From Eledone cirrhosa (lineage: Eukaryota), in assembly GCA_964016885.1 (NCBI GenBank), contig OZ024744.1, forward strand, positions 134,974,001-135,038,000: a DNA stretch of 64,000 nucleotides, written 5' to 3'. Under the pieces are notes generated by a model, which saw only the letters and a list, made by a program, of their open reading frames with translations, was not told the DNA's origin and did no database searches. Positions 2,865 to 64,000 of the stretch are shown here, piece after piece (position 1 is the stretch's first letter; each line of letters starts with the position of its first letter). Made by a program: the position numbers and the translations under genes.

Positions 2865-3039
2865 AACCCCAACTTAACTTAACCCCAACTTCACTCAACC
2901 CCAACGTAACTCAACCCCAACTTAACTTAACCCCAACTTCACTCAACCCCAAGTTAACTTAACCCCAACTTCACTCAACCCCAACTTCCAACTTGACTTA
3001 ACCCCAACTTAACTTAGCCCCAACTTAACTTAAGCCCAA
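2865..3039 (-). repeat. Inverted 175-bp satellite block, copy 1 (type A)
   Basis: About 11 AACCCCAACTTAACTT-type monomers, from GGGGTT|AACCCC to AAGCCCAA|AGTCGGGG. Carries the CCCCAAGTTAAC variant. Confidence 0.97.
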
Positions 3040-5477
3040 AGTCGGGGTTAAGTTAAGTTGGCGTTAAGTTAAAGTGGCGTTAAGTTAAGTTAGGCTTAAC
3101 TTAAGTTGGGGTTCAGTTAAGTTGGGGGTAAGTTAAGTTGGGGGTAAGTTAAGTTGGGGTTAAGTTAAGTTGCGGTTAAGTTGGGGTTAAGTTAAGTTAG
3201 GGTTAAGTTAAGTTGGGGTTGAGTTAAGTTGGGGTTAATTAAGTGGTGGTTATGTTAAGTTGGGGTTAAGTTAAGTTGGGGTTAATTTAAATTGGGGTTA
3301 AGTTAACTTTGTGGTTAAGTTAAGTTGGGGTTAAGTTAAGTTGGGGTAAAGTTGGGGTTGAGTTAAGTTGGGGTTGAGTGAAGTTGGGGTTAAGTTAAGT
3401 TGGGGTTAAGTTAAGTTGGGGTTAAGATAAGTCGGGGTTAAGTTAAGTTGTGGTTGAGTTAAGTTGGGGTTAATTTAAGTTGGGGCTAAGTTAATTTGTG
3501 GTTAAGTTAAGTTGGGGTTAAGTTAAGTTGGGGTTAAGTTAAGTTGGGTTTAAGTTAAGTTGGGGTTAAATTAAGTTGGGGTTAAATTAAGTTGGGGTTA
3601 AGTTAAGTTGGGGGTAAGTTAAGTTGGGGGCAAGTTAAGTTGGGGTTAATTTAAGTTGGGGTTAAATTAAGTTGGGGTTAAGTTAAGTTGGGGCTAAGTT
3701 AAGTTGGGGCTGAGTTAAGTTGGGGCTGAGTTAAGTTGGGGCTAAGTTAAGTTGGGGTTGAGTTAAGTTGGGGTTAAGTTGGGGTTAAGTTAAGTTAGGT
3801 TTAAGTTAAGTTGGGGTTAAGTTAAGTTGGGGTTAAGTTAAGTTGGGGTTAAGTTAAGTTGGGGTTAAGTTAAGTTGGGGTTAAGTTAAGTTGGGGTTAA
3901 GTTAAGTTGGGGTTAAGTTAATTTGTGGTTAAGTTAAGTTGTGGTTAAGTTAAGTTGGGGTTAAGTTAAGTTGGGGTTAAGTTAAGTCGGGGTTAAGTTA
4001 AGTTGGGGTTAAGTTAAGTTGGGGTTAATTAAGTTGGGGTTAAGTTAAGTTGGGGTTAAGTTAAGTTGGGGTTAATTTAAGTTGGGGTTGAGTTAAGTTG
4101 GGGTTGAGTTAAATTGGGGTTGAGTTAAGTTGGGGTTGAGTTAAGTTGGTGTTGAGTTAAGTTGGGGTTAAGTTAAGTTGGGGTTAAATTAAGTTGGGGT
4201 TAAGTTAAGTTGGGGGTAAGTTAAGTTGGGGGCAAGTTAAGTTGGGGTTAATTTAAGTTGGGGTTAAATTAAGTTGGGGTTACGTTAAGTTGGTGCTAAG
4301 TTAAGTTGGGGTTAATTTAAGTTGGGGTTAATTAAGTTGGGGTTAAGTTAAGTTGGGGTTAAGTTAAGTTGGGGTTAATTTAAGTTGGGGTTGAGTTAAG
4401 TTGGGGTTAAGTTAATTTGGGGTTATATTAAGTTGGGGTTAATTAAGTTGGGGTTCAGTTAAGTTGGGGTTAAGTTAAGTTGGGGTTAAGTTAAGTTGAG
4501 GTTAAGTTAAGTTGGGGTTAAGTTAAGTTGGTGTTAAGTTAAGTTGGGGCTAATTTAAGTTGGGGCTGAGTTAAGTTGGGGCTGAGTTAAGTTGGGGCTA
4601 AATTAAGTTGGGGTTGAGTTAAGTTGGGGTTAAGTTGGGGTTAAGTTATGTTAGGTTTAAGTTAAGTTGGGGTTAAGTTAAGTTGGGGTTAAGTTAAGTT
4701 GGGGTTAAGTTAAGTTGGGGTTAAGTTAAGTTGGGGTTAAGTTAAGTTGGTGTTAAGTTAAGTTGGGGCTAAGTTAAGTTGGGGCTGAGTTAAGTTGGGG
4801 CTGAGTTAAGTTGGGGCTAAATTAAGTTGGGGTTGAGTTAAGTTGGGGTTAAGTTGGGGTTAAGTTAAGTTAGGTTTAAGTTAAGTTGGGGTTAAGTTAA
4901 GTTGGGGTTAAGTTAAGGTGGGGTTAAGTTAAGTTGGGGTTAAGTTAAGTTGTGGTTAAGTTAAGTTGGGGTTAATTTAAGTTGGGGTTAATTTAAGTTG
5001 GGGTTAAGTTAAGTTGGGGTTAAGTTAAGTTGGGGTAATTAAGTTGGGGTTAAGTTAAGTTGGGGATAATTTAAGTTGGGGTTAAGTTAAGTTTGAGTTT
5101 AAGTTAAGTTGGGGTTAAGTTAAGTTGGGGTTAAGTTAAGTTGGGGTTAAGTTAAGTTGGTTAGTTAAGTTGAGTTTAAGTTAAGTTGGGGTTAATTTAA
5201 GTTGGGGTTAAGTTAAGCTGGGGTTAAGTTAAGTTGGGGTTAAGTTAAGTTGGGGTTAATTTAAGTTGGGGTTAAGTTAAGTTGGGGTTAAGTTAAGTCG
5301 GGGTTAAGTTAAGTTGGGGTTAAGTTAAGTTGGGGTTAAGTTAAGTTGGGGTTAAGTTAAGTTGGTTAGTTAAGTTGAGTTTAAGTTAAGTTGGGGTTAA
5401 TTTAAGTTGGGTTAAGTTAAGTTGGGGTTAAGTTAAGTTGGGGTTAAGTTAAGTTGGGGTTAAGTTAAGTTGGGGTT

Positions 5478-5652
5478 AACCCCAACTTAACTTAACCCCA
5501 ACTTCACTCAACCCCAACGTAACTCAACCCCAACTTAACTTAACCCCAACTTCACTCAACCCCAAGTTAACTTAACCCCAACTTCACTCAACCCCAACTT
5601 CCAACTTGACTTAACCCCAACTTAACTTAGCCCCAACTTAACTTAAGCCCAA
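5478..5652 (-). repeat. Inverted 175-bp satellite block, copy 2 (type A)
   Basis: Same junctions and internal variants as copy 1, including CCCCAAGTTAAC and the downstream TTAAAGTGGCG. Confidence 0.97.
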
Positions 5653-7921
5653 AGTCGGGGTTAAGTTAAGTTGGCGTTAAGTTAAAGTGGCGTTAAGTTA
5701 AGTTAGGCTTAACTTAAGTTGGGGTTCAGTTAAGTTGGGGGTAAGTTAAGTTGGGGGTAAGTTAAGTTGGGGTTAAGTTAAGTTGCGGTTAAGTTGGGGT
5801 TAAGTTAAGTTAGGGTTAAGTTAAGTTGGGGTTGAGTTAAGTTGGGGTTAATTAAGTGGTGGTTATGTTAAGTTGGGGTTAAGTTAAGTTGGGGTTAATT
5901 TAAATTGGGGTTAAGTTAACTTTGTGGTTAAGTTAAGTTGGGGTTAAGTTAAGTTGGGGTAAAGTTGGGGTTGAGTTAAGTTGGGGTTGAGTGAAGTTGG
6001 GGTTAAGTTAAGTTGGGGTTAAGTTAAGTTGGGGTTAAGATAAGTCGGGGTTAAGTTAAGTTGTGGTTGAGTTAAGTTGGGGTTAATTTAAGTTGGGGCT
6101 AAGTTAATTTGTGGTTAAGTTAAGTTGGGGTTAAGTTAAGTTGGGGTTAAGTTAAGTTGGGTTTAAGTTAAGTTGGGGTTAAATTAAGTTGGGGTTAAAT
6201 TAAGTTGGGGTTAAGTTAAGTTGGGGGTAAGTTAAGTTGGGGGCAAGTTAAGTTGGGGTTAATTTAAGTTGGGGTTAAATTAAGTTGGGGTTAAGTTAAG
6301 TTGGGGCTAAGTTAAGTTGGGGCTGAGTTAAGTTGGGGCTGAGTTAAGTTGGGGCTAAGTTAAGTTGGGGTTGAGTTAAGTTGGGGTTAAGTTGGGGTTA
6401 AGTTAAGTTAGGTTTAAGTTAAGTTGGGGTTAAGTTAAGTTGGGGTTAAGTTAAGTTGGGGTTAAGTTAAGTTGGGGTTAAGTTAAGTTGGGGTTAAGTT
6501 AAGTTGGGGTTAAGTTAAGTTGGGGTTAAGTTAATTTGTGGTTAAGTTAAGTTGTGGTTAAGTTAAGTTGGGGTTAAGTTAAGTTGGGGTTAAGTTAAGT
6601 CGGGGTTAAGTTAAGTTGGGGTTAAGTTAAGTTGGGGTTAATTAAGTTGGGGTTAAGTTAAGTTGGGGTTAAGTTAAGTTGGGGTTAATTTAAGTTGGGG
6701 TTGAGTTAAGTTGGGGTTGAGTTAAATTGGGGTTGAGTTAAGTTGGGGTTGAGTTAAGTTGGTGTTGAGTTAAGTTGGGGTTAAGTTAAGTTGGGGTTAA
6801 ATTAAGTTGGGGTTAAGTTAAGTTGGGGGTAAGTTAAGTTGGGGGCAAGTTAAGTTGGGGTTAATTTAAGTTGGGGTTAAATTAAGTTGGGGTTACGTTA
6901 AGTTGGTGCTAAGTTAAGTTGGGGTTAATTTAAGTTGGGGTTAATTAAGTTGGGGTTAAGTTAAGTTGGGGTTAAGTTAAGTTGGGGTTAATTTAAGTTG
7001 GGGTTGAGTTAAGTTGGGGTTAAGTTAATTTGGGGTTATATTAAGTTGGGGTTAATTAAGTTGGGGTTCAGTTAAGTTGGGGTTAAGTTAAGTTGGGGTT
7101 AAGTTAAGTTGAGGTTAAGTTAAGTTGGGGTTAAGTTAAGTTGGTGTTAAGTTAAGTTGGGGCTAATTTAAGTTGGGGCTGAGTTAAGTTGGGGCTGAGT
7201 TAAGTTGGGGCTAAATTAAGTTGGGGTTGAGTTAAGTTGGGGTTAAGTTGGGGTTAAGTTATGTTAGGTTTAAGTTAAGTTGGGGTTAAGTTAAGTTGGG
7301 GTTAAGTTAAGTTGGGGTTAAGTTAAGTTGGGGTTAAGTTAAGTTGGGGTTAAGTTAATTTGTGGTTAAGTTAAGTTGTGGTTAAGTTAAGTTGGGGTTA
7401 AGTTAAGTTGGGGTTAATTTAAGTTGGGGTTAAGTTAAGTTGGGGTTAAGTTAAGTTGGGGTTAAGTTAAGTTGGGGTTAAGTTAAGTTGGGGATAATTT
7501 AAGTTGGGGTTAAGTTAAGTTTGAGTTTAAGTTAAGTTGGGGTTAAGTTAAGTTGGGGTTAAGTTAAGTTGGGGTTAAGTTAAGTTGGGGTTAAGTTAAG
7601 TTGGTTAGTTAAGTTGAGTTTAAGTTAAGTTGGGGTTAATTTAAGTTGGGGTTAAGTTAAGCTGGGGTTAAGTTAAGTTGGGGTTAAGTTAAGTTGGGGT
7701 TAATTTAAGTTGGGGTTAAGTTAAGTTGGGGTTAAGTTAAGTCGGGGTTAAGTTAAGTTGGGGTTAAGTTAAGTTGGGGTTAAGTTAAGTTGGGGTTAAG
7801 TTAAGTTGGTTAGTTAAGTTGAGTTTAAGTTAAGTTGGGGTTAATTTAAGTTGGGTTAAGTTAAGTTGGGGTTAAGTTAAGTTGGGGTTAAGTTAAGTTG
7901 GGGTTAAGTTAGGTTGGGGTT

Positions 7922-8096
7922 AACCCCAACTTAACTTAACCCCAACTTCACTCAACCCCAACGTAACTCAACCCCAACTTAACTTAACCCCAACTTCACT
8001 CAAGCCTAACTTAACTTAACCCCAACTTCACTCAACCCCAACTTCCAACTTGACTTAACCCCAACTTAACTTAGGCCCAACTTAACTTAAGCCCAA
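7922..8096 (-). repeat. Inverted 175-bp satellite block, copy 3 (type B)
   Basis: Same junctions. Preceded by TTAGGTTGGGG, with internal CAAGCCTAAC and TTAGGCCC variants. Confidence 0.97.
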
Positions 8097-10658
8097 AGTC
8101 GGGGTTAAGTTAAGTTGGCGTTAAGTTAAGTTGGCGTTAAGTTAAGTTAGGCTTAACTTAAGTTGGGGTTCAGTTAAGTTGGGGGTAAGTTAAGTTGGGG
8201 TTAAGTTAAGTTAGGGTTAAGTTAAGTTGGGGTTGAGTTAAGTTGGGGTTAATTAAGTGGTGGTTATGTTAAGTTGGGGTTAAGTTAAGTTGGGGTTAAT
8301 TTAAATTGGGGTTAAGTTAACTTTGTGGTTAAGTTAAGTTGGGGTTAAGTTAAGTTGGGGTAAAGTTGGGGTTGAGTTAAGTTGGGGTTGAGTGAAGTTG
8401 GGGTTAAGTTAAGTTGGGGTTAAGTTAAGTTGGGGTTAAGATAAGTCGGGGTTAAGTTAAGTTGTGGTTGAGTTAAGTTGGGGTTAATTTAAGTTGGGGC
8501 TAAGTTAATTTGTGGTTAAGTTAAGTTGGGGTTAAGTTAAGTTGGGGTTAAGTTAAGTTGGGGTTGAGTTAAGTTGGGGCTGAGTTAATTTGGGTTTAAG
8601 TTAAGTTGGGGTTAAGTTAAGTTGGGTTTAAGTTAAGTTGGGGTTAAATTAAGTTGGGGTTAAATTAAGTTGGGGTTAAGTTAAGTTGGGGGTAAGTTAA
8701 GTTGGGGGCAAGTTAAGTTGGGGTTAATTTAAGTTGGGGTTAAATTAAGTTGGGGTTACGTTAAGTTGGTGTTAAGTTAAGTTGGGGTTAATTTAAGTTG
8801 GGGTTAATTAAGTTGGGGTTAAGTTAAGTTGGGGTTAAGTTAAGTTGGGGTTAATTTAAGTTGGGGTTGAGTTAAGTTGGGGTTAAGTTAAGTTGGGGTT
8901 ATATTAAATTGGGGTTAAGTTAAGTTGGGGTTCAGTTAAGTTGGGGTTAAGTTAAGTTGGGGTTAAGTTAAGTTGAGGTTAAGTTAAGTTGGGGTTAAGT
9001 TAAGTTGGTGTTAAGTTAAGTTGGGGCTAAGTTAAGTTGGGGCTGAGTTAAGTTGGGGCTGAGTTAAGTTGGGGCTAAGTTAAGTTGGGGTTGAGTTAAG
9101 TTGGGGTTAAGTTGGGGTTAAGTTAAGTTAGGTTTAAGTTAAGTTGGGGTTAAGTTAAGTTGGGGTTAAGTTAAGTTGGGGTTAAGTTAAGTTGGGGTTA
9201 AGTTAAGTTGGGGTTAAGTTAAGTTGGGGTTAAGTTAAGTTGGGTTAAGTTAATTTGTGGTTAAGTTAAGTTGTGGTTAAGTTAAGTTGGGGTTAAGTTA
9301 AGTTGGGGTTAAGTTAAGTCGGGGTTAAGTTAAGTTGGGGTTAAGTTAAGTTGGGGTTAATTAAGTTGGGGTTAAGTTAAGTTGGGGTTAAGTTAAGTTG
9401 GGGTTAATTTAAGTTGGGGTTGAGTTAAGTTGGGGTTGAGTTAAATTGGGGTTGAGTTAAGTTGGGGTTGAGTTAAGTTGGTGTTGAGTTAAGTTGGGGT
9501 TAAGTTAAGTTGGGGTTAAATTAAGTTGGGGTTAAATTAAGTTGGGGTTAATTTAAGTTGGGGGTAAGTTAAGTTGGGGGCAAGTTAAGTTGGGGTTAAT
9601 TTAAGTTGGGGTTAAATTAAGTTGGGGTTACGTTAAGTTGGTGCTAAGTTAAGTTGGGGTTAATTTAAGTTGGGGTTAATTAAGTTGGGGTTAAGTTAAG
9701 TTGGGGTTAAGTTAAGTTGGGGTTAATTTAAGTTGGGGTTGAGTTAAGTTGGGGTTAAGTTAATTTGGGGTTATATTAAGTTGGGGTTAAGTTAAGTTGG
9801 GGTTCAGTTAAGTTGGGGTTAAGTTAAGTTGGGGTTAAGTTAAGTTGAGGTTAAGTTAAGTTGGGGTTAAGTTAAGTTGGTGTTAAGTTAAGTTGGGGCT
9901 AAGTTAAGTTGGGGCTGAGTTAAGTTGGGGCTGAGTTAAGTTGGGGCTAAATTAAGTTGGGGTTGAGTTAAGTTGGGGTTAAGTTGGGGTTAAGTTATGT
10001 TAGGTTTAAGTTAAGTTGGGGTTAAGTTAAGTTGGGGTTAAGTTAAGTTGGGGTTAAGTTAAGTTGGGGTTAAGTTAAGTTGGGGTTAAGTTAAGTTGGG
10101 GTTAAGTTAATTTGTGGTTAAGTTAAGTTGTGGTTAAGTTAAGTTGGGGTTAAGTTAAGTTGGGGTTAATTTAAGTTGGGGTTAAGTTAAGTTGGGGTTA
10201 AGTTAAGTTGGGGTTAAGTTAAGTTGGGGTTAAGTTAAGTTGGGGATAATTTAAGTTGGGGTTAAGTTAAGTTTGAGTTTAAGTTAAGTTGGGGTTAAGT
10301 TAAGTTGGGGTTAAGTTAAGTTGGGGTTAAGTTAAGTTGGTTAGTTAAGTTGAGTTTAAGTTAAGTTGGGGTTAATTTAAGTTGGGGTTAAGTTAAGCTG
10401 GGGTTAAGTTAAGTTGGGGTTAAGTTAAGTTGGGGTTAATTTAAGTTGGGGTTAAGTTAAGTTGGGGTTAAGTTAAGTCGGGGTTAAGTTAAGTTGGGGT
10501 TAAGTTAAGTTGGGGTTAAGTTAAGTTGGGGTTAAGTTAAGTTGGTTAGTTAAGTTGAGTTTAAGTTAAGTTGGGGTTAATTTAAGTTGGGGTTAAGTTA
10601 AGTTGGGGTTAAGTTAAGTTGGGGTTAAGTTAAGTTGGGGTTAAGTTAAGTTGGGGTT

Positions 10659-10833
10659 AACCCCAACTTAACTTAACCCCAACTTCACTCAACCCCAACG
10701 TAACTCAACCCCAACTTAACTTAACCCCAACTTCACTCAACCCCAACTTAACTTAACCCCAACTTCACTCAACCCCAACTTCCAACTTGACTTAACCCCA
10801 ACTTAACTTAGCCCCAACTTAACTTAAGCCCAA
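10659..10833 (-). repeat. Inverted 175-bp satellite block, copy 4 (type C, consensus)
   Basis: Same junctions, consensus internal sequence. Confidence 0.97.
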
Positions 10834-13800
10834 AGTCGGGGTTAAGTTAAGTTGGCGTTAAGTTAAGTTGGCGTTAAGTTAAGTTAGGCTTAACTTAAGT
10901 TGGGGTTCAGTTAAGTTGGGGGTAAGTTAAGTTGGGGTTCAGTTAAGTTAGGGTTAAGTTAAGTTGGGGTTGAGTTAAGTTGGGGTTAATTAAGTGGTGG
11001 TTATGTTAAGTTGGGGTTAAGTTAAGTTGGGGTTAATTTAAATTGGGGTTAAGTTAACTTTGTGGTTAAGTTAAGTTGGGGTTAAGTTAAGTTGGGGTTC
11101 AGTTAAGTTGGGGTTCAGTTAAGTTGGGGTTAAGTTAAGTTGGGGTTGAGTTAAGTTGGGGTTGAGTTAAATTGGGGTTGAGTTAAGTTGGGGTTGAGTT
11201 AAGTTGGTGTTGAGTTAAGTTGGGGTTAAGTTAAGTTGGGGTTAAGTTAAGTTGCAGTTAAGTTAAGTTGAGGTTAAGTTAAGGTGGGGTTAAGTTAAGT
11301 CGGGGTTAAGTTAAGTTGTGGTTGAGTTAAGTTGGGGTTAATTTAAGTTGGGGCTAAGTTAATTTGTGGTTAAGTTAAGTTGGGGTTAAGTTAAGTTGGG
11401 GTTAAGTTAAGTTGGGGTTGAGTTAAGTTGGGGTTGAGTTAATTTGGGGTTAAGTTAAGTTGGGGTTAAGTTAAGTTGGGTTTAAGTTAAGTTGGGGTTA
11501 AATTAAGTTGGGGTTAAATTAAGTTGGGGTTAAGTTAAGTTGGGGGTAAGTTAAGTTAGGGGCAAGTTAAGTTGGGGTTAATTTAAGTTGGGGTTAAATT
11601 AAGTTGGGGTTACGTTAAGTTGGTGTTAAGTTAAGTTGGGGTTAATTTAAGTTGGGGTTACTTAAGTTGGGGTTAAGTTAAGTTGGGGTTAAGTTAAGTT
11701 GGGGTTAATTTAAGTTGGTGTTGAGTTAAGTTGGGGTTAAGTTAAGTTGGGGTTATATTAAGTTGGGGTTAAGTTAAGTTGGGGTTCAGTTAAGTTGGGG
11801 ATAAGTTAAGTTGGGGTTAAGTTAAATTGGGGTTAATTAAGTTGGGGTTAAGTTAAGTTGGGGTTAAGTTAAGTTGGGGCTAAGTTAAGTTGGGGCTGAG
11901 TTAAGTTGGGTCTGAGTTAAGTTGGGGTTAAGTTAATTTGGGGTTGAGTTAATTCGGGGTTAAGTTAAGTTGGGGTTAAGTTGGGGTTAAGTTAAGTTAG
12001 GTTTAAGTTAAGTTGGGGTTAAGTTAAGTTGGGGTTAAGTTAAGTTGGGGTTAAGTTAAGTTGGGGTTAAGTTAAGTTGGGGTTAAGTTAATTTGTGGTT
12101 TAGTTAAGTTGGGGTTAAGTTAAGTTGGGGTTAAGTTAAGTTGGGGTTAAGTTAAGTTGGGGTTAAGTTAAGTTGGGGATAAGTTAAGTTGGGGATAATT
12201 TAAGTTGGGGTTAAGTTAAGTTGGGGTTAAGTTAAGTCGGGGTTAAGTTAAGTCGGGGTTAAGTTAAGTTGGGGTTAAGTTAAGTTGGGGTTAAGTTAAG
12301 TTGGGGTTAAGTTAAGTTGGGGTTAAGTTAAGTTGGGGTTAAGTTAAGTTGGGGTTAAGTTAAGTTGAGGTTAAGTTAAGTTGGGGTTAAATTAAGTTGG
12401 GGTTAAGTTAAGTTGGGGTTAAGTTAAGTTGGGGTTAAGTTAAGTTGGGGATAAGTTAAGTTGGGGATAATTTAAGTTGGGGTTAAGTTAAGTTGGGTTT
12501 AAGTTAAGTTGGGGTTAAGTTAAGTTGGGGCTAAGTTAAGTTGGGGCTGAGTTAAGTTGGGGTTAAGTTAAGTTGGGGGCAAGTTAAGTTGGGGTTAATT
12601 TAAGTTGGGGTTTATTTAAGTTGGGGTTAAGTTAAGTTGGGGTTCAGTTAAGTTGGGGTTAAGTTAAGTTGGGGTTAAGATGGGGTTAAATTAAGTTGGG
12701 GTTAAGTTAAGTTGGGGTTAAGTTAAGTTGGGGTTAAGTTAAGTTGGGGTTAAGTTAAGTCGGGGTTAAGTTAAGTCGGGGTTAAGTTAAGTTAGGGTTC
12801 AGTTAATTGGGGTTAAGTTAAGTTGGGGTTGAGTTAAGTTGGGGTTGAGTTAAATTGGGGTTGAGTTAAGTTGGGGTTGAGTTAAGTTGGTGTTGAGTTA
12901 AGTTGGGGTTAAGTTAAGTTGGGGTTAAATTAAGTTGGGGTTAAATTAAGTTGGGGTTAAGTTAAGTTGGGGGTAAGTTAAGTTGGGGGCAAGTTAAGTT
13001 GGGGTTAATTTAAGTTGGGGTTAAATTAAGTTGGGGTTACGTTAAGTTGGTGCTAAGTTAAGTTGGGGTTAATTTAAGTTGGGGTTAATTAAGTTGGGGT
13101 TAAGTTAAGTTGGGGTTAAGTTAAGTTGGGGTTAATTTAAGTTGGGGTTGAGTTAAGTTGGGGTTAAGTTAATTTGGGGTTATATTAAGTTGGGGTTAAG
13201 TTAAGTTGGGGTTCAGTTAAGTTGGGGTTAAGTTAAGTTGGGGTTAAGTTAAGTTGAGGTTAAGTTAAGTTGGGGTTAAGTTAAGTTGGTGTTAAGTTAA
13301 GTTGGGGCTAAGTTAAGTTGGGGCTGAGTTAAGTTGGGGCTGAGTTAAGTTGGGGCTAAATTAAGTTGGGGTTGAGTTAAGTTGGGGTTAAGTTGGGGTT
13401 AAGTTAAGTTAGGTTTAAGTTAAGTTGGGGTTAAGTTAAGTTGGGGTTAAGTTAAGGTGGGGTTAAGTTAAGTTGGGGTTAAGTTAAGTTGTGGTTAAGT
13501 TAAGTTGGGGTTAATTTAAGTTGGGGTTAATTTAAGTTGGGGTTAAGTTAAGTTAGGGTTAAGTTAAGTTGGGGTAATTAAGTTGGGGTTAAGTTAAGTT
13601 GGGGATAATTTAAGTTGGGGTTAAGTTAAGTTTGAGTTTAAGTTAAGTTGGGGTTAAGTTAAGTTGGGGTTAAGTTAAGTTGGGGTTAAGTTAAGTTGGT
13701 TAGTTAAGTTGAGTTTAAGTTAAGTTGGGGTTAATTTAAGTTGGGGTTAAGTTAAGCTGGGGTTAAGTTAAGTTGGGGTTAAGTTAAGTTGGGGTTAATT

Positions 13801-14016
13801 TAAGTTGGGGTTAAGTTAAGTTGGGGTTAAGTTAAGTCGGGGTTAAGTTAAGTTGGGGTTAAGTTAAGTTGGGGTTAAGTTAAGTTGGGGTTAAGTTAAG
13901 TTGGTTAGTTAAGTTGAGTTTAAGTTAAGTTGGGGTTAATTTAAGTTGGGTTAAGTTAAGTTGGGGTTAAGTTAAGTTGGGGTTAAGTTAAGTTGGGGTT
14001 AAGTTAAGTTGGGGTT

Positions 14017-14191
14017 AACCCCAACTTAACTTAACCCCAACTTCACTCAACCCCAACGTAACTCAACCCCAACTTAACTTAACCCCAACTTCACTCAACC
14101 CCAAGTTAACTTAACCCCAACTTCACTCAACCCCAACTTCCAACTTGACTTAACCCCAACTTAACTTAGCCCCAACTTAACTTAAGCCCAA
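14017..14191 (-). repeat. Inverted 175-bp satellite block, copy 5 (type A)
   Basis: CCCCAAGTTAAC variant and downstream TTAAAGTGGCG, as in copies 1 and 2. Confidence 0.97.
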
Positions 14192-16605: not shown

Positions 16606-16780
16606 AACCCCAACTTAACTTAACCCCAACTTCACTCAACCCCAACGTAACTCAACCCCAACTTAACTTAACCCCAACTTCACTCAAGCCCAACTTAACT
16701 TAACCCCAACTTCACTCAACCCCAACTTCCAACTTGACTTAACCCCAACTTAACTTAGCCCCAACTTAACTTAAGCCCAA
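16606..16780 (-). repeat. Inverted 175-bp satellite block, copy 6 (type B)
   Basis: Preceded by TTAGGTTGGGG. The internal CAAGCC variant is shared with copy 3. Confidence 0.97.
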
Positions 16781-19342: not shown

Positions 19343-19517
19343 AACCCCAACTTAACTTAACCCCAACTTCACTCAACCCCAACGTAACTCAACCCCAACT
19401 TAACTTAACCCCAACTTCACTCAACCCCAACTTAACTTAACCCCAACTTCACTCAACCCCAACTTCCAACTTGACTTAACCCCAACTTAACTTAGCCCCA
19501 ACTTAACTTAAGCCCAA
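19343..19517 (-). repeat. Inverted 175-bp satellite block, copy 7 (type C)
   Basis: Same junctions, consensus internal sequence. Lies 2737 bp after copy 6, as copy 4 does after copy 3. Confidence 0.97.
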
Positions 19518-22061: not shown

Positions 22062-22236
22062 AACCCCAACTTAACTTAACCCCAACTTCACTCAACCCCA
22101 ACGTAACTCAACCCCAACTTAACTTAACCCCAACTTCACTCAACCCCAACTTAACTTAACCCCAACTTCACTCAACCCCAACTTCCAACTTGACTTAACC
22201 CCAACTTAACTTAGCCCCAACTTAACTTAAGCCCAA
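22062..22236 (-). repeat. Inverted 175-bp satellite block, copy 8
   Basis: Consensus block. The right flank keeps only one GGCG monomer before switching context. Confidence 0.97.
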
Positions 22237-23267
22237 AGTCGGGGTTAAGTTAAGTTGGCGTTAAGTTAAGTTGGGGTTAAGTTAAGTCGGGGTTAAGTTA
22301 AGTCGGGGTTAAGTTAAGTTAGGGTTCAGTTAAGTTGGGGTTAAGTTAAGTTGGGGTTGAGTTAAGTTGGGGTTGAGTTAAATTGGGGTTGAGTTAAGTT
22401 GGGGTTGAGTTAAGTTGGTGTTGAGTTAAGTTGGGGTTAAGTTAAGTTGGGGTTAAATTAAGTTGGGGTTAAATTAAGTTGGGGTTAAGTTAAGTTGGGG
22501 GTAAGTTAAGTTGGGGTTAATTTAAGTTGGGGTTAATTAATGTTGGGGTTAAGTTTGAGTTGGGGTTAAGTTACGTTGGGGTTAAGTTAAGTTGAGGTTA
22601 AGTTAAGTTGGGGTTAAGTTAAGTTGGTGTTAAGTTAAGTTGGGGCTAAGTTAAGTTGGGGCTGAGTTAAGTTGGGGCTGAGTTAAGTTGGGGCTAAGTT
22701 AAGTTGGGGTTGAGTTAAGTTGGGGTTAAGTTGGGGTTAAGTTAAGTTAGGTTTAAGTTAAGTTGGGTTTAAGTTAAGTTGGGGTTAAGTTAAGTTGGGG
22801 TTAAGTTAAGTTGGGGTTAAGTTAAGTTGGGGTTAAGTTAATTTGGGGTTAAGTTAATTTGTGGTTAAGTTAAGTTGTGGTTAAGTTAAGTTGGGGTTAA
22901 GTTAAGTTGGGGTTAAGTTAAGTCGGGGTTAAGTTAAGTTGGGGTTAATTTAAGTTGGGGTTAAGTTAAGTTGGGGTTAAGTTAAGTTGGGGTTAAGTTA
23001 AGTCGGGGTTAAGTTAAGTTGGGGTTAAGTTAAGTTGGGGTTAATTTAAGTTGGGGTTAAGTTAAGTTGGGGTTAAGTTAAGTTGGGGTTAAGTTAAGTT
23101 GGGGTTAAGTTAATTTGGGGATAATTTAAGTTGGGGTTAATTTAAGTTTGAGTTTAAGTTAAGTTGGGGTTAAGTTAAGTTGGGGTTAAGTTAATTTGGG
23201 GATAATTTAAGTTGGGGTTAAGTTAAGTTGGGGTTAAGTTAAGTTGGGGTTAAGTTAAGTTGGGGTT

Positions 23268-23442
23268 AACCCCAACTTAACTTAACCCCAACTTCACTCA
23301 ATCCCAACGTAACTCAACCCCAACTTAACTTAACCCCAACTTCACTCAACCCCAACTTAACTTAACCCCAACTTCACTCAACCCCAACTTCCAACTTGAC
23401 TTAACCCCAACTTAACTTAGCCCCAACTTAACTTAAGCCCAA
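23268..23442 (-). repeat. Inverted 175-bp satellite block, copy 9
   Basis: Same junctions, with a private AATCCC variant. Confidence 0.97.
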
Positions 23443-26400
23443 AGTCGGGGTTAAGTTAAGTTGGCGTTAAGTTAAGTTGGGGTTAATTAAGTGGTGGTTA
23501 TGTTAAGTTGGGGTTAAGTTAAGTTGGGGTTAATTTAAATTGGGGTTAAGTTAACTTTGTGGTTAAGTTAAGTTGGGGTTAAGTTAAGTTGGGGTAAAGT
23601 TGGGGTTGAGTTAAGTTGGGGTTGAGTGAAGTTGGGGTTAAGTTAAGTTGGGGTTAAGTTAAGTTGGGGTTAAGATAAGTCGGGGTTAAGTTAAGTTGTG
23701 GTTGAGTTAAGTTGGGGTTAATTTAAGTTGGGGCTAAGTTAATTTGTGGTTAAGTTAAGTTGGGGTTAAGTTAAGTTGGGGTTAAGTTAAGTTGGGGTTG
23801 AGTTAAGTTGGGGCTGAGTTAATTTGGGTTTAAGTTAAGTTGGGGTTAAGTTAAGTTCGGTTTAAGTTAAGTTGGGGTTAAATTAAGTTGGGGTTAAATT
23901 AATTTGGGGTTAAGTTAAGTTGGGGGTAAGTTAAGTTGGGGGCAAGTTAAGTTGGGGTTAATTTAAGTTGGGGTTAAATTAAGTTGGGGTTACGTTAAGT
24001 TGGTGTTAAGTTAAGTTGGGGTTAATTTAAGTTGGGGTTAATTAAGTTGGGGTTAAGTTAAGTTGGGGTTAAGTTAAGTTGGGGTTAATTTAAGTTGGGG
24101 TTGAGTTAAGTTGGGGTTAAGTTAAGTTGGGGTTATATTAAGTTGGGGTTAAGTTAAGTTGGGGTTCAGTTAAGTTGGGGTTAAGTTAAGTTGGGGTTAA
24201 GTTAAGTTGAGGTTAAGTTAAGTTGGGGTTAAGTTAAGTTGGTGTTAAGTTAAGTTGGGTCTAAGTTAAGTTGGGGCTGAGTTAAGTTGGGGCTGAGTTA
24301 AGTTGGGGCTAAGTTAAGTTGGGGTTGAGTTAAGTTGGGGTTAAGTTGGGGTTAAGTTAAGTTAGGTTTAAGTTAAGTTGGGGTTAAGTTAAGTTGGGGT
24401 TAAGTTAAGTTGGGGTTAAGTTAAGTTGGGGTTAAGTTAAGTTGGGGTTAAGTTAATTTGTGGTTAAGTTAAGTTGTGGTTAAGTTAAGTTGGGGTTAAG
24501 TTAAGCTGGGGTTAAGTTAAGTCGGGGTTAAGTTAAGTTGGGGTTAAGTTAAGTTGGGGTTAATTTAAGTTGGGGTTAAGTTAAGTTGGGGTTAAGTTAA
24601 GTTGGGGTTAAGTTAAGTCGGGGTTAAGTTAAGTTGGGGTTAAGTTAAGTTGGGGTTAATTTAAGTTGGGGTTAAGTTAAGTTGGGGTTAAGTTAAGTTG
24701 GGGTTAAGTTAAGTTGGGGTTAAGTTAAGTTGGGGATAATTTAAGTTGGGGTTAAGTTAAGTTTGAGTTTAAGTTAAGTTGGGGTTAAGTTAAGTTGGGG
24801 TTAAGTTAAGCTGGGGTTAAGTTAAGTTGGGGTTAAGTTAAGTTGGGGTTAATTTAAGTTGGGGTTAAGTTAAGTTGCGGGTAATTTAAGTTGGGGTTAA
24901 GTTAAGTTGGGGTTAAGTTAAGTTGGGGTTAAGTTAAGTTGGGGTTAAGTTAAGTTGGGGCTAATTTAAGTTGGGGCTGAGTTAAGTTGGGGTTAAGTTA
25001 AGTTGGGGTTAAGTTAAGTTGGGGTTAAGTTAAGTTGGGGTTTATTTAAGTTGGGGTTAAGTTAAGTTGGGGTTCAGTTAAGTTGGGGTTCAGTTAAGTT
25101 GGGGTTAAGTTAAGTTGGGGTTAAGATGGGGTTAAATTACGTTGGAGTTAAGTTAAGTTGGGGTTAAGTTAAGTTGGGGTTAAGTTAAGTTGGGGTTAAG
25201 TTAAGTCGGGGTTAATTTAAGTCGGGGTTAAGTTAAGTTAGTGTTCAGTTAAGTTGGGGTTAAGTTAAGTTGGGGTTGAGTTAAGTTGGGGTTGAGTTAA
25301 ATTGGGGTTGAGTTAAGTTGGGGTTGAGTTAAGTTGCAGTTAAGTTAAGTTGAGGTTAAGTTAAGTTGGGGTTAAGTTAAGTCGGGGTTAAGTTAAGTTG
25401 GGGTTAAGTTAAGTTGGGGTTAATTTAAGTTGGGGTTAAGTTATGTTGGGGTTAAGTTAAGTTGGGGTTAAGTTAAGTTGGGTTTAAGTTAAGTTGGGGT
25501 TAAGTTAAGTTGGGGTTGAGTTAAGTTGGGGCTGAGTTAAGTTGGGGTTAAGTTAAGTTGGGGTTAAGTTAAGTTGGGTTTAAGTTAAGTTGGGGTTAAG
25601 TTAAGTTGGGGTTGAGTTAAGTTGGGGTTAAGTTGGGGTTAAGTTAAGTTAGGTTTAAGTTAAGTTGGGGTTAAGTTAAGTTGGGGTTAAGTTAAGTTGT
25701 GGTTAAGTTAAGTTGGGGTTAAGTTAAGTTGGGGTTAAGTTAAGTCGGGGTTAAGTTAAGTTGGGGTTAAGTTAAGTTGGGGTTAATTTAAGTTGGGGTT
25801 AAGTTAAGTTGGGGTTAAGTTAAGTTGGGGTTAAGTTAATTGGGGTTAAGTTAAGTTGGGGTTAAGTTAAGTTGAGGTTAAGTTAAGTTGGGGTTAAATT
25901 AAGTTTGGGTTAAGTTAAGTTGGGGTTAAGTTAAGTTGGGGTTAAGTTAAGTTGGGGTAAGTTAATTTGGGAATAATTTAAGTTGGGGTTAAGTTAAGTT
26001 GGGTTTAAGTTAAGTTGGGGTTAAGTTAAGTTGGGGTTAACTTAAGTTGGGGTTAACTTAAGTTGGGGTTAAGTTAAGTTGGGGCTAAGTTAAGTTGGGG
26101 CTGAGTTAAGTTGGGGTTAAGTTAAGTTGGGGTTAAGTTAAGTTGGGGTTAAGTTAAGTTGGGGTTAATTTAAGTTGGGGTTAAGTTAAGTTGGGGTTCA
26201 GTTAAGTTGGGGTTAAGTTAAGTTGGGGTTAAGATGGGGTTAAATTACGTTGGAGTTAAGTTAAGTTGGGGTTAAGTTAAGTTGGGGTTAAGTTAAGTTG
26301 GGGTTAAGTTAAGTCGGGGTTAATTTAAGTCGGGGTTAAGTTAAGTTAGGGTTCAGTTAAGTTGGGGTTAAGTTAAGTTGGGGTTGAGTTAAGTTGGGGT

Positions 26401-26878
26401 TGAGTTAAATTGGGGTTGAGTTAAGTTGGGGTTGAGTTAAGTTGGTGTTTAGTTAAGTTGGGGTTAAGTTAAATTGAGGTTAAGTTAAGTTGCAGTTAAG
26501 TTAAGTTGAGGTTAAGTTAAGGTGCGGTTAAGTTAAGTTGGGGTTAAGTTAAGTTGGGGCTAAGTTAAGTTGGGGCTAAGTTAAGTTGGGGCTAAGTTAA
26601 GTTGGGGTTAAGTTAAGTTGGGGTTAAGTTAAGTCGGGGTTAAGTTAAGTTGGGGTTAAATTAAGTTGGGGTTAATTTAAGTTGGGGTTAAGTTAAGTTG
26701 GGGTTAAGTTAAGTTGGGTTTAAGTTAAGTTGGGGTTAAGTTAAGTTGGGGTTAAGTTAAGTTGGGGTTAAGTTAAGTTGGTTAGTTAAGTTGAGTTTAA
26801 GTTAAGTTGGGGTTAATTTAAGTTGGGGTTAAGTTAAGTTGGGGTTAAGTTAAGTTGGGGTTAAGTTAAGTTGGGGTT

Positions 26879-27053
26879 AACCCCAACTTAACTTAACCCC
26901 AACGTAACTCAACCCCAACGTAACTCAACCCCAACTTAACTTAACCCCAACTTCACTCAACCCCAACTTAACTTAACCCCAACTTCACTCAACCCCAACT
27001 TCCAACTTGACTTAACCCCAACTTAACTTAGCCCCAACTTAACTTAAGCCCAA
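26879..27053 (-). repeat. Inverted 175-bp satellite block, copy 10
   Basis: Same junctions. The second monomer reads AACGTAACTC (a duplicate of the third) instead of AACTTCACTC. Confidence 0.97.
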
Positions 27054-28749
27054 AGTCGGGGTTAAGTTAAGTTGGCGTTAAGTTAAGTTGGCGTTAAGTT
27101 AAGTTAGGCTTAACTTAAGTTGGGGTTCAGTTAAGTTGGGGGTAAGTTAAGTTGGGGGTAAGTTAAGTTGGGGGTAAGTTAAGTTGGGGTTAAGTTAAGT
27201 TGCGGTTAAGTTGGGGTTAAGTTAAGTTAGGGTTAAGTTAAGTTGGGGTTGAGTTAAGTTGGGGTTAATTAAGTGGTGGTTATGTTAAGTTGGGGTTAAG
27301 TTAAGTTGGGGTTAATTTAAATTGGGGTTAAGTTAACTTTGTGGTTAAGTTAAGTTGGGGTTGAGTGAAGTTGGGGTTAAGTTAAGTTGGGGTTAAGTTA
27401 AGTTGGGGTTAAGATAAGTCGGGGTTAAGTTAAGTTGTGGTTGAGTTAAGTTGGGGTTAATTTAAGTTGGGGCTAAGTTAATTTGTGGTTAAGTTAAGTT
27501 GGGGTTAAGTTAAGTTGGGGTTAAGTTAAGTTGGGGTTGAGTTAAGTTGGGGTTGAGTTAATTTGGGGTTAAGTTAAGTTGGGGTTAAGTTAAGTTGGGG
27601 TTAAGTTAAGTCGGGGTTAAGTTAAGTTGGGGTTAAGTTAAGTTGGGGTTAATTAAGTTGGGGTTAAGTTAAGTTGGGGTTAAGTTAAGTTGGGGTTAAT
27701 TTAAGTTGGGGTTGAGTTAAGTTGGGGTTGAGTTAAATTGGGGTTGAGTTAAGTTGGGGTTGAGTTAAGTTGGTGTTGAGTTAAGTTGGGGTTAAGTTAA
27801 GTTGGGGTTAAATTAAGTTGGGGTTAAATTAAGTTGGGGTTAAGTTAAGTTGGGGGTAAGTTAAGTTGGGGGCAAGTTAAGTTGGGGTTAATTTAAGTTG
27901 GGGTTAAATTAAGTTGGGGTTACGTTAAGTTGGTGCTAAGTTAAGTTGGGGTTAATTTAAGTTGGGGTTAATTAAGTTGGGGTTAAGTTAAGTTGGGGTT
28001 AAGTTAAGTTGGGGTTAATTTAAGTTGGGGTTGAGTTAAGTTGGGGTTAAGTTAATTTGGGGTTATATTAAGTTGGGGTTAAGTTAAGTTGGGGTTCAGT
28101 TAAGTTGGGGTTAAGTTAACTTGGGGTTAAGTTAAGTTGAGGTTAAGTTAAGTTGGGGTTAAGTTAAGTTGGGGTTAAGTTAAGTTGGGGTTAAGTTAAG
28201 TTGGGGTTAAGTTAAGTTGGGGTTAAGTTAATTTGTGGTTAAGTTAAGTTGTGGTTAAGTTAAGTTGGGGTTAAGTTAAGTTGGGGTTAATTTAAGTTGG
28301 GGTTAAGTTAAGTTGGGGTTAAGTTAAGTTGGGGTTAAGTTAAGTTGGGGTTAAGTTAAGTTGGGGATAATTTAAGTTGGGGTTAAGTTAAGTTTGAGTT
28401 TAAGTTAAGTTGGGGTTAAGTTAAGTTGGGGTTAAGTTAAGTTGGGGTTAAGTTAAGTTGGGGTTAAGTTAAGTTGGGGTTACGTTAAGTTGGTGTTAAT
28501 TTAAGTTGGGGTTAATTAAGTTGGGGTTAAGTTAAGTTGGGGTTACGTTAAGTTGGTGTTAATTTAAGTTGGGGTTAATTAAGTTGGGGTTAAGTTAAGT
28601 TGGGGTTAATTTAAGTTGGGGTTGAGTTAAGTTGGGGTTAAGTTAAGTTGGGGTTAAGTTAAGTTGGGGTTAAGTTAAGTTGGGGTTAAGTTAAGTTGGG
28701 GTTAAATTAAGTTGGGGTTAAGTTAAGTTGGGGTTAAGTTAAGTTGGGG

Positions 28750-31700
28750 TTAAGTTAAGTTGGGGATAATTTAAGTTGGGGTTAAGTTAAGTTTGAGTTT
28801 AAGTTAAGTTGGGGTTAAGTTAAGTTGGGGTTAAGTTAAGTTGGTTAGTTAAGTTGAGTTTAAGTTAAGTTGGGGTTAATTTAAGTTGGCGTTAAGTTAA
28901 GCTGGGGTTAAGTTAAGTTGGGGTTAAGTTAAGTTGGGGATAATTTAAGTTGGGGTTAAGTTAAGTTGCGGGTAATTTAAGTTGGGGTTAAGTTAAGTTG
29001 GGGTTAAGTTAAGTTGGGGTTAAGTTAAGTTGGGGTTAAGTTAAGTTGGGGTTAAGTTAAGTTGGGGCTAATTTAAGTTGGGGCTGAGTTAAGTTGGGGT
29101 TAAGTTAAGTTGGGGTTAAGTTAAGTTGGGGTTAAGTTAAGTTGGGGTTAAGTTAAGTTGGGGTTTATTTAAGTTGGGGTTAAGTTAAGTTGGGGTTCAG
29201 TTAAGTTGGGGTTCAGTTAAGTTGGGGTTAAGTTAAGTTGGGGTTAAGATGGGGTTAAATTACGTTGGAGTTAAGTTAAGTTGGGGTTAAGTTAAGTTGG
29301 GGTTAAGTTAAGTTGGGGTTAAGTTAAGTCGGGGTTAATTTAAGTCGGGGTTAAGTTAAGTTAGGGTTCAGTTAAGTTGGGGTTAAGTTAAGTTGGGGTT
29401 GAGTTAAGTTGGGGTTGAGTTAAATTGGGGTTGAGTTAAGTTGGGGTTGAGTTAAGTTGCAGTTAATTTAAGTTGAGGTTAAGTTAAGGTGCGGTTAAGT
29501 TAAGTTGGGCTTAAGTTAAGTTGGGGCTAAGTTAAGTTGGGGCTCAGTTAAGTTGGGGCTAAGTTAAGTTGGGGTTAAGTTAAGTTGGGGTTAAGTTAAG
29601 TCGGGGTTAAGTTAAGTTGGGGTTAAGTTAAGTTGGGGTTAATTTAAGTTGGGGTTAAGTTATGTTGGGGTTAAGTTAAGTTGGGGTTAAGTTAAGTTGG
29701 GTTTAAGTTAAGTTGGGGTTAAGTTAAGTTGGGGTTGAGTTAAGTTGGGGCTGAGTTAATTTGGGGTTAAGTTAAGTTGGGGTTAAGTTAAGTTGGGTTT
29801 AAGTTAAGTTGGGGTTAAGTTAAGTTGGGGTTGAGTTAAGTTGGGGTTAAGTTGGGGTTAAGTTAAGTTAGGTTTAAGTTAAGTTGGGGTTAAGTTAAGT
29901 TGGGGTTAAGTTAAGTTGTGGTTAAGTTAAGTTGGGGTTAAGTTAAGTCGGGGTTAAGTTAAGTTGGGGTTAAGTTAAGTTGGGGTTAAGTTAATTGGGG
30001 TTAAGTTAAGTTGGGGTTAAGTTAAGTTGAGGTTAAGTTAAGTTGGGGTTAAATTAAGTTTGGGTTAAGTTAAGTTGGGGTTAAGTTAAGTTGGGGTTAA
30101 GTTAAGTTGGGGTAAGTTAAGTTGGGGATAATTTAAGTTGGGGTTAAGTTAAGTTGGGTTTAAGTTAAGTTGGGGTTAAGTTAAGTTGGGGTTAAGTTAA
30201 GTTGGGGTTAAGTTAAGTTGGGGTTAATTTAAGTTGGGGTTAAGTTAAGTTGGGGTTAAGTTAAGTTGGGGTTAAGTTAAGTTGGGGTTAAGTTAAGTTG
30301 GGGTTAAGTTAAGTTGGGGTTAAGTTAAGTTGGGGTTAAGTTAAGTTGGGGTTAAGTTAAGTTGGGGATAATTTAAGTTGGGGTTAAGTTAAGTTTGAGT
30401 TTAAGTTAAGTTGGGGTTAAGTTAAGTTGGGGTTAAGTTAAGTTGGTTAGTTAAGTTGAGTTTAAGTTAAGTTGGGGTTAATTTAAGTTGGCGTTAAGTT
30501 AAGCTGGGGTTAAGTTAAGTTGGGGTTAAGTTAAGTTGGGGTTAATTTAAGTTGGGGTTAAGTTAAGTTGCGGGTAATTTAAGTTGGGGTTAAGTTAAGT
30601 TGGGGTTAAGTTAAGTTGGGGTTAAGTTAAGTTGGGGTTAAGTTAAGTTGGGGTTAAGTTAAGTTGGGGCTAATTTAAGTTGGGGCTGAGTTAAGTTGGG
30701 GTTAAGTTAAGTTGGGGTTAAGTTAAGTTGGGGTTAAGTTAAGTTGGGGTTAAGTTAAGTTGGGGTTTATTTAAGTTGGGGTTAAGTTAAGTTGGGGTTC
30801 AGTTAAGTTGGGGTTCAGTTAAGTTGGGGTTAAGTTAAGTTGGGGTTAAGATGGGGTTAAATTACGTTGGAGTTAAGTTAAGTTGGGGTTAAGTTAAGTT
30901 GGGGTTAAGTTAAGTTGGGGTTAAGTTAAGTCGGGGTTAATTTAAGTCGGGGTTAAGTTAAGTTAGGGTTCAGTTAAGTTGGGGTTAAGTTAAGTTGGGG
31001 TTGAGTTAAGTTGGGGTTGAGTTAAATTGGGGTTGAGTTAAGTTGGGGTTGAGTTAAGTTGCAGTTAATTTAAGTTGAGGTTAAGTTAAGGTGCGGTTAA
31101 GTTAAGTTGGGCTTAAGTTAAGTTGGGGCTAAGTTAAGTTGGGGCTCAGTTAAGTTGGGGCTAAGTTAAGTTGGGGTTAAGTTAAGTTGGGGTTAAGTTA
31201 AGTCGGGGTTAAGTTAAGTTGGGGTTAAGTTAAGTTGGGGTTAATTTAAGTTGGGGTTAAGTTATGTTGGGGTTAAGTTAAGTTGGGGTTAAGTTAAGTT
31301 GGGTTTAAGTTAAGTTGGGGTTAAGTTAAGTTGGGGTTGAGTTAAGTTGGGGCTGAGTTAATTTGGGGTTAAGTTAAGTTGGGGTTAATTTAAGTTGGGT
31401 TTAAGTTAAGTTGGGGTTAAGTTAAGTTGGGGTTGAGTTAAGTTGGGGTTAAGTTGGGGTTAAGTTAAGTTAGGTTTAAGTTAAGTTGGGGTTAAGTTAA
31501 GTCGGGGTTAAGTTAAGTTGGGGTTAAGTTAAGTTGGGGTTAATTTAAGTTGGGGTTAAGTTAAGTTGGGGTTAAGTTAAGTTGGGGTTAAGTTAATTGG
31601 GGTTAAGTTAAGTTGGGGTTAAGTTAAGTTGAGGTTAAGTTAAGTTGGGGTTAAATTAAGTTTGGGTTAAGTTAAGTTGGGGTTAAGTTAAGTTGGGGTT

Positions 31701-31900
31701 AAGTTAAGTTGGGGTAAGTTAAGTTGGGGATAATTTAAGTTGGGGTTAAGTTAAGTTGGGTTTAAGTTAAGTTGGGGTTAAGTTAAGTTGGGGTTAAGTT
31801 AAGTTGGGGTTAAGTTAAGTTGGGGTTAAGTTAAGTTGGGGCTGAGTTAAGTTGGGGCTGAGTTAAGTTGGGGTTAAGTTAAGTTGGGGTTAAGTTAAGT
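28750..31900 (+). repeat. Tandem duplication with 1,602-bp offset
   Basis: TTGGCGTTAAGTTAAGCTGGGG at 28886/30488 and TTACGTTGGAG at 29260/30862. Ends are approximate. Confidence 0.75.
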
Positions 31901-32635
31901 TGGGGTTAAGTTAAGTTGGGGTTAATTTAAGTTGGGGTTAAGTTAAGTTGGGGTTCAGTTAAGTTGGGGTTCAGTTAAGTTGGGGTTAAGTTAAGTTGGG
32001 GTTAAGATGGGGTTAAATTACGTTGGAGTTAAGTTAAGTTGGGGTTAAGTTAAGTTGGGTTTAAGTTAAGTTGGGGTTAAGTTAAGTCGGGGTTAATTTA
32101 AGTCGGGGTTAAGTTAAGTTAGGGTTCAGTTAAGTTGGGGTTAAGTTAAGTTGGGGTTGAGTTAAGTTGGGGTTGAGTTAAATTGGGGTTGAGTTAAGTT
32201 GGGGTTGAGTTAAGTTGGTGTTGAGTTAAGTTGGGGTTAAGTTAAATTGAGGTTAAGTTAAGTTGCAGTTAAGTTAAGTTGAGGTTAAGTTAAGGTGCGG
32301 TTAAGTTAAGTTGGGGTTAAGTTAAGTTGGGGCTAAGTTAAGTTGGGGCTAAGTTAAGTTGGGGCTAAGTTAAGTTGGGGTTAAGTTAAGTTGGGGTTAA
32401 GTTAAGTCGGGGTTAAGTTAAGTTGGGGTTAAGTTAAGTTGGGGTTAATTTAAGTTGGGGTTAAGTTAAGTTGGGGTTAAGTTAAGTTGGGTTTAAGTTA
32501 AGTTGGGGTTAAGTTAAGTTGGGGTTAAGTTAAGTTGGTTAGTTAAGTTGAGTTTAAGTTAAGTTGGGGTTAATTTAAGTTGGGGTTAAGTTAAGTTGGG
32601 GTTAAGTTAAGTTGGGGTTAAGTTAAGTTGGGGTT

Positions 32636-32810
32636 AACCCCAACTTAACTTAACCCCAACTTCACTCAACCCCAACGTAACTCAACCCCAACTTAACTTA
32701 ACCCCAACTTCACTCAACCCCAACTTAACTTAACCCCAACTTCACTCAACCCCAACTTCCAACTTGACTTAACCCCAACTTAACTTAGCCCCAACTTAAC
32801 TTAAGACCAA
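32636..32810 (-). repeat. Inverted 175-bp satellite block, copy 11 (last in window)
   Basis: Same left junction. Ends AAGACCAA (private variant). Confidence 0.97.
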
Positions 32811-63900: not shown

Positions 63901-64000
63901 AGTTGGGGGTAAGTTAAGATGGGGTTAAGTTAAGTTGGGGTTAAGTTAATTTGGGGTTAAGTTAGGGTTAAGTTAAGTTGGGGTTGAGTTAAGTTGGGGT
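48990..64000 (+). repeat. Higher-order repeat of ~7.3-7.6 kb, two copies plus the start of a third
   Basis: TGAAG of TTAAATGAAG at 49841/57421, GGGATTTATT at 55581/63161 and TGGTAAG at 56311/63891 (all offset 7580). GTCG at 54595/62159 (offset 7564). Confidence 0.85.

Follow-up and report, generated by a model that had tools for sequence, protein, structure and literature searches.

The 64,000-nucleotide window analysed here (G000:C28:134,974,001-135,038,000, from Eledone cirrhosa) lies within a long array of a 16-bp satellite that runs in one orientation, and it is interrupted by eleven short blocks in which the satellite runs in reverse. The locus raises the question of why a strand-uniform array should carry such an inverted block, which we call the cassette, at recurrent intervals, and whether the block is kept for a function or is copied along with its surroundings. 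The cassette consists of the satellite's own sequence in reverse orientation, and we consider it probable that it has been a neutral passenger of kilobase-scale duplications since a single inversion.

The window is one tandem array of period 16 (about 4035 copies, 89% matches) with the monomer TTAAGTTAAGTTGGGG, whose G-rich strand is the + strand, so that the window is strongly G-rich on +. CC dinucleotides are confined to 11 blocks, each of 175 bp and made of about 11 reverse-oriented monomers. As an earlier note on this DNA had described, the blocks have both junctions in common: the left junction reads GGGGTT/AACCCC and the right junction CCAA/AGTCGGGG in 11/11 (the slash marks the switch). 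Between them there is no indel, and 8 variable columns account for 0-5 differences per pair. The note's list of shared internal idiosyncrasies holds in 11/11 for most motifs but not for two of them, since AGCCCC is present in 10/11 (copy 7922 carries a substitution) and the first AACTTCACTC is replaced in copy 26879. The recurrence that it reported, mostly every ~2.4-3.6 kb within a range of 1.2-5.8 kb, was borne out by 8 of the 10 start-to-start spacings (2613, 2444, 2737, 3358, 2589, 2737, 2719, 1206, 3611 and 5757 bp), the extremes being 1206 and 5757 bp. The flanks of copies 1 and 2 are identical for 385 bp on the left and 1706 bp on the right, and the palindrome at the left junction has arms of 27 bp in eight of the eleven copies, 25 bp in one and 9 bp in two. 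Positions 32,811-64,000 of the window contain no cassette. A 24-bp hallmark of the 175-bp class has 294 exact matches genome-wide (231 on +, 63 on -) and its reversed control has 0, which argues that the blocks did not arise by chance.

The genome-wide count for which the note had called gave 859 matches to the right junction and 689 to the perfect 24-bp palindrome of the left junction, with 0 for the controls. The family therefore comprises at least 859 copies, and about 990 when that number is divided by the sensitivity of the pattern (142/164). Among the matches listed (the first 100 for the hallmark and for each junction pattern), all are on contig C28 and none on C1-C27. Strand segmentation of ~1 Mb of sampled tiles yielded 198 minority segments, of which 164 were kept; the 34 excluded comprised 25 pieces of an AT-rich satellite, 5 half-cassettes joined to that satellite and 4 whole cassettes that fell to the flank filter. 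Each of the 164 copies, which span 124.6-135.0 Mb of C28, has recognisable versions of both junctions. This finding supports a single origin, and with it the earlier proposal that one ancestral inversion was absorbed into a kilobase-scale higher-order unit and then amplified. The accompanying claim that the length of the cassette stayed fixed finds no support, because these copies fall into 30 length classes between 88 and 440 bp (175 bp, 47 copies; 200 bp, 31; 216 bp, 14; 211 bp, 10; 296 and 345 bp, 7 each; 423-424 bp, 12; and others), and all 15 cassettes in the 40 kb to the left of the window measure 200, 211 or 216 bp. The uniform 175 bp of the window thus reflects local ancestry, and recent amplification, one of the causes previously suggested for it, is supported. 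In 106 young copies there are 13 distinct cassette indels, most of 16, 32, 48 or 64 bp, so that length changes both by whole monomers and by shorter steps; what sets the 175-bp class apart is a single deletion of 25 bp at position 123 of the cassette (49 of the 106). Diagnostic monomers that are present in the long forms are missing from the 200-bp form, which suggests shrinkage by deletion; the order of lengths would have been from long (about 300-430 bp) to 200 bp and then to 175 bp.

Substitution and length change proceed in the cassette much as they do around it. From 107 pairs of cassettes with both flanks matching over at least 250 bp we kept 59 non-redundant pairs, in which 43 substitutions in 13,387 bp of cassette (0.32%) compare with 387 in 129,390 bp of flank (0.30%; binomial p=0.62). 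The centre of the palindrome shows no sign of either protection or erosion (0.30 distinct substitutions per bp versus 0.32 elsewhere), and the 24-bp left palindrome is perfect in 117/164 copies. In the same 59 pairs the cassette underwent 11 indels (8.2e-4 per bp) and the flanks 78 register breaks (7.8e-4 per bp), although flank breaks differ in kind from cassette indels, which makes the comparison a rough one, and flanks can include neighbouring cassettes. At these rates, and with 8 substitution events among the 11 copies of the window, the probability that all of them would keep the same length is ~0.13. Two other suggestions of the earlier note find no support here: that the block has a limited ability to misalign with forward monomers, and, as far as sequence evolution bears on it, that the cassette is functional.

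The rhythm and distribution of the cassette are likewise those of ordinary variants of the satellite. Point-variant monomers, for example GTGGTGGTTATG and AACTTTGTGG, recur every 2.4-3.8 kb in the window's 1-33 kb, and several of them vanish in 33-64 kb, as the cassette does. A survey of 87 tiles (924 kb) counted 143 copies of the cassette junction, spread over 46 tiles; for ordinary markers the figures were 138-474 copies and 46-78 tiles in 8 of 10 cases, and two were rarer. Tiles with strand switches match those without them both in recent duplication (0.56 versus 0.55, p=0.95) and in duplication distance (3157 versus 2883 bp, p=0.81); this comparison used 45 and 36 tiles, respectively, with AT-rich satellite tiles left out of the 81, and a narrower set of 55 tiles agreed. 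On a larger scale, neither junction pattern has a match between 124.69 and 130.247 Mb of C28, of which 3.3 Mb is this array; none of the 10 satellite tiles sampled there contains a strand switch, and no cassette was found in the sampled last 0.34 Mb of the array. Because its spacing and patchiness resemble those of point variants, we regard the cassette as one conspicuous marker among others of a higher-order unit that is irregular and 1-6 kb long.

Beyond the roughness of the indel comparison, several observations weigh against the neutral-passenger account. Within 1-33.5 kb of the window, the collinearity of the cassettes (P=0.87 for sharing 175 bp) exceeds that of all 52 control anchors (median 0.27, maximum 0.81), an excess that is gone once the adjoining 40 kb are added (0.26 versus a median of 0.20 and a maximum of 0.78 for 44 anchors). 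In the 106 young copies, singleton substitutions are fewer in the cassette (0.185 per bp) than over the 33-100 bp of right flank nearest to it (0.30-0.36), where the count includes exchanged monomers, as flank counts generally do; they equal those of the left flank (0.183 per bp). Constraint on shape alone, of a kind that any inverted tract could satisfy, would leave all of these rates unchanged. Finally, when 873 kb of background tiles were searched by BLAST and by variant-weighted monomer alignment, no convincing source of the cassette emerged on the forward strand; the best forward match reaches at most ~94%, and the variant-aware score beats shuffles for 2 of 4 queries, with few variants in common. 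The mechanism of origin is therefore deduced from the junctions only. Since the mirror identity of the cassette to its own flank ends at 27 bp, and no source was found, either the event is old relative to the turnover of the array or the source lies outside the sample.

The junctions themselves carry microhomology. The monomer holds two palindromic TTAA words, on one of which the left junction is centred, and the two orientations overlap by ~1 nt at the right junction; the junctions of a second cassette on contig C18 and two further folds on C28, described below, are centred on TTAA-containing palindromes. A count of linker bases comes out ~14 nt short of what a clean in-place flip would leave, and template switching or repair would explain this better than reciprocal exchange. 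The cassette likely arose once, through a replication template switch or through fold-back repair, at the TTAA palindrome of the monomer, and unequal exchange or break-induced replication may have copied it. The kilobase-scale duplications that turn over the whole array would then carry the cassette along neutrally, and each cassette would offer inverted homology that might occasionally seed a larger strand switch. A miniature transposon or a retro-insertion was considered and rejected, the cassette being pure satellite and its copies having flanks in common.

That the inversion process recurs is indicated by an unrelated cassette in an array of the same satellite on C18, where an independent inverted island of 142 bp, both of whose junctions are TTAA-centred and differ from those of the C28 cassette, occurs in 3 copies. 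This island mirrors a variant monomer found just to its left, two monomers out of register. On C28 there are two new folds, at 131,964,581 and 132,859,241. Of the within-contig switches, 4 do not mark the edge of a complete cassette, and at 2 of these the right junction of the cassette is used again. In particular, at 132,857,200 reversed array enters a cassette without loss of register, goes on for 2 kb into the flank and then folds back with a 94-bp duplication, whereas at 133,355,374 the boundary of a large reversed domain consists of the right junction and 2.5 cassette monomers joined to ordinary array. Strand invasion into an inverted repeat would be expected to leave junction reuse of this sort, and may account for the two cases. 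Two of six apparent boundaries of large reversed domains (near 131.988 and 132.794 Mb) turned out to be 200-N scaffold gaps; the orientation of blocks across gaps was therefore set aside, and only the four within-contig switches were used. Three 200-N scaffold gaps lie inside or beside the array, and degraded C-rich sequence follows one of them. The block at 131.99-132.79 Mb resembles that at 124.6 Mb, and both may be misplaced.

Three other accounts of the cassette have to be weighed against neutral carriage. The cassette could be kept for its shape, with length and sequence free, as a cruciform or a fold-back of single-stranded DNA or RNA that punctuates a centromeric or heterochromatic layer. 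The estimate of ~990 copies would suit such a role, the same proposal has been made for inversion sites in Tribolium (PMC13081366 and PMC12581902), and the cassette with its flanks is predicted to fold at -178 kcal/mol (z=-22.8, with 0 of 100 shuffles as good); a stable single-strand fold would, however, be expected of any inverted satellite tract, and would indicate potential rather than use. Against selection for shape stand the long stretches described above from which junction matches are absent, at 124.69-130.247 Mb and in the sampled terminal 0.34 Mb, as well as a 24-bp palindrome that is perfect in only 117/164 copies and whose centre is as variable as the rest. The confinement of the listed matches to C28 further argues against a general centromere mark. 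We consider selection for shape unlikely, and the same holds for its fullest form, in which the cassette would be a sequence-free mark whose roughly one thousand fold-back sites organise the centromeric layer of one chromosome and seed inversions of kilobase to sub-megabase size.

Less likely still is that the palindromic junction is a fragile site, one that would break and drive its own amplification and so act as a selfish driver of the layer. Window copies, compared in pairs, do mostly diverge close to the cassette, 61-69 bp to its left and 33-146 bp to its right, and the two larger switches at 132,857,200 and 133,355,374 reuse its right junction; but flank sharing at the junctions (medians of 61 and 104 bp) falls within the control range (median 62, quartiles 23-185), cassette-bearing tiles are neither younger nor more duplicated than others, and the copy number is like that of ordinary variants. 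As for sequencing or assembly artefacts, such as fold-back chimeras or duplicated reads, the array does contain 200-N scaffold gaps and one degraded contig end, and the blocks are described here from the assembly. Nevertheless, the window is without N, the cassette mirrors its own flank for only 27 bp, and nested sub-lineages over 10 Mb, in both orientations and with 30 length classes, whose cassette variants go together with variants of the flanks, are unlike chimeric reads, so that we find an artefact very hard to credit. Three sequencing runs of one sample, which may be the assembly's source, hold 0.66-0.68 of the words of window positions 2700-3700; six further runs, with shares of 0.04-0.13, were counted as no evidence. 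Neutral carriage after a single inversion remains the reading that we prefer.

Table 1. Features of the satellite array and its inverted cassettes (positions in the window unless a contig is named).
Feature	Position	Strand	Remark
16-bp satellite array, G-rich strand +	1..64000	+	part of ~8.4-Mb array, C28 ~126.9-135.348 Mb
Cassette copy 1 (175-bp class)	2865..3039	-	
Cassette copy 2	5478..5652	-	identical to copy 1; offset 2613, recent tandem duplication
Cassette copy 3	7922..8096	-	duplicate partner of copy 6, offset 8684
Cassette copy 4	10659..10833	-	duplicate partner of copy 7, offset 8684; 3039 bp of left flank in common
Cassette copy 5	14017..14191	-	sub-lineage of copies 1 and 2
Cassette copy 6	16606..16780	-	
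Cassette copy 7	19343..19517	-	
Cassette copy 8	22062..22236	-	right flank exchanged after ~40 bp
Cassette copy 9	23268..23442	-	right flank exchanged after ~40 bp
Cassette copy 10	26879..27053	-	
Cassette copy 11	32636..32810	-	last before the cassette-free stretch that reaches the array's end
Left junction, copy 1	2838..2891	.	perfect palindrome, 27-bp arms, centre is the monomer's own TTAA
25-bp deletion scar (200-bp to 175-bp form), copy 1	2983..2995	-	truncated AACTTCC monomer
Right junction, copy 1	3030..3050	.	~1 nt overlap between orientations, no foreign sequence
Cassette-free layer, same satellite	32811..64000	+	also without several point-variant markers of 1-32,810
142-bp island copies	C18 10,129,120-10,129,261; 10,132,220-10,132,361; third near 10,188,784		
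Opposite-strand 2-kb insert	C28 132,857,025-132,859,334		cassette entry, new-fold closure, 94-bp duplication

The array as a whole has the sequence properties of layered satellite DNA: a short monomer repeats head to tail over megabases, multi-monomer units recur (duplicated tracts of 2-3.5 kb in the window), and regions differ in their sets of variant markers. In sampled tiles of the 136.5-Mb contig C28 the satellite starts between 126.81 and 127.0 Mb and ends at 135.348 Mb; a separate block lies at 124.60-124.69 Mb, and at 132.0-132.8 Mb the array is mixed with the AT-rich satellite. A 36-bp satellite dimer has 64,581 exact matches in the 3.0-Gb genome, of which tile density predicts that the C28 array alone gives 55,000-62,000; the satellite is thus largely specific to C28. 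Elsewhere it forms the further array on C18 and short tracts within a composite repeat on C2. No occurrence of the monomer turned up in literature text (two 14-mers gave 0 matches, and the 14 papers with a match to an 11-mer looked unrelated by title). We rejected a telomeric repeat variant, as 1.15 Mb separate the array from the end of the contig, where a different repeat is found. TTAGGG repeats are abundant in the genome and TTAGG arrays are absent, with 47,044 matches to (TTAGGG)7 and two to (TTAGG)8.

Some neighbouring observations may be added. The AT-rich satellite interleaves with the 16-bp array at 132.0-132.8 Mb and 124.63 Mb of C28, in places taking the place of the cassette's left junction, and a similar AT-rich repeat at 209.19 Mb adjoins the C2 satellite block, whose short tracts lie inside the larger composite repeat at 209.2-209.5+ Mb, at the midpoint of that 416-Mb contig. 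The distal arm of C28 (100-136.5 Mb) carries many unrelated satellites, and telomere repeats occur at neither end of the contig in the 10 kb sampled. On C1 there are large interstitial TTAGGG arrays at 208.6 and 217.8-217.9 Mb, possibly a fusion site. In cassette copy 3, two close substitutions at window positions 8004-8007 are the reverse complement of a variant monomer in the right flank; this single case could reflect templated conversion.

Cassette-bearing and cassette-free layers stand side by side in one array, and if chromatin does track the cassette, they would allow a direct test of the view that shape, and not sequence, matters in centromeric DNA. The cassette is also a good lineage marker for dating the layers of the 8-Mb array, and it provides two cases in which larger inversions were apparently seeded by a small one. 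Moreover, it offers a clean natural control, since junctions in Tribolium have been read as functional, whereas here about a thousand copies evolve at the rate of their flanks.

Amplified inversion junctions have precedents. In Tribolium madens, the satellites TmSat1 and TmSat2 have 2044, 3486 and 6428 orientation-switch sites that are 98-99% alike; a hairpin function is proposed, conservation may, according to the authors, reflect the spreading mechanism, and the term 'cassettes' is used in part for inversion junctions (PMC13081366). Near-identical amplified switch junctions within satellite arrays are common to that system and ours, as are a conserved junction in hundreds to thousands of copies (859 and 689 here) and the lack of extraneous sequence at the switch, features of the Tribolium-type macro-dyad. 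In T. madens, however, the arms are kilobases long and roughly symmetric, occur on many contigs and were confirmed in raw reads (PMC13081366), whereas on C28 inverted tracts of 88-440 bp alternate with forward spacers of 0.2-6+ kb in place of similar multi-kilobase arms, and each is an island with two junctions in a strand-uniform 16-bp array, the listed copies being on one chromosome. The satellite TfSat01 of Tribolium freemani has six conserved inversion types (95-99.9% conserved) and resembles ours in having fixed junction types at high copy with no foreign junction sequence, but several of its types are common to 3-7 chromosomes (PMC12581902); here one pair of junctions belongs to C28 and an unrelated pair to C18. 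In the 1061-bp satellite of Tribolium brevicornis (cited in PMC12581902), a higher-order monomer with inverted subunits, the inverted subunit is now part of the repeating unit, as it is here, although that unit is regular and half inverted and ours is irregular, of 1-6 kb and ~6% inverted. Human HSat3B5 on chromosome 9, a large short-period satellite array, and beta satellite have over 200 strand-switch breakpoints (bioRxiv 10.1101/2021.07.12.452052), and HSat3B5 is like our array in its many inversion breakpoints; the available text of that preprint does not state whether they descend from one amplified junction. Amplified inversion junctions are thus already known from Tribolium, and what differs here is that the inverted part is a short island between two junctions, set in an array of 16-bp monomers and apparently on one chromosome.

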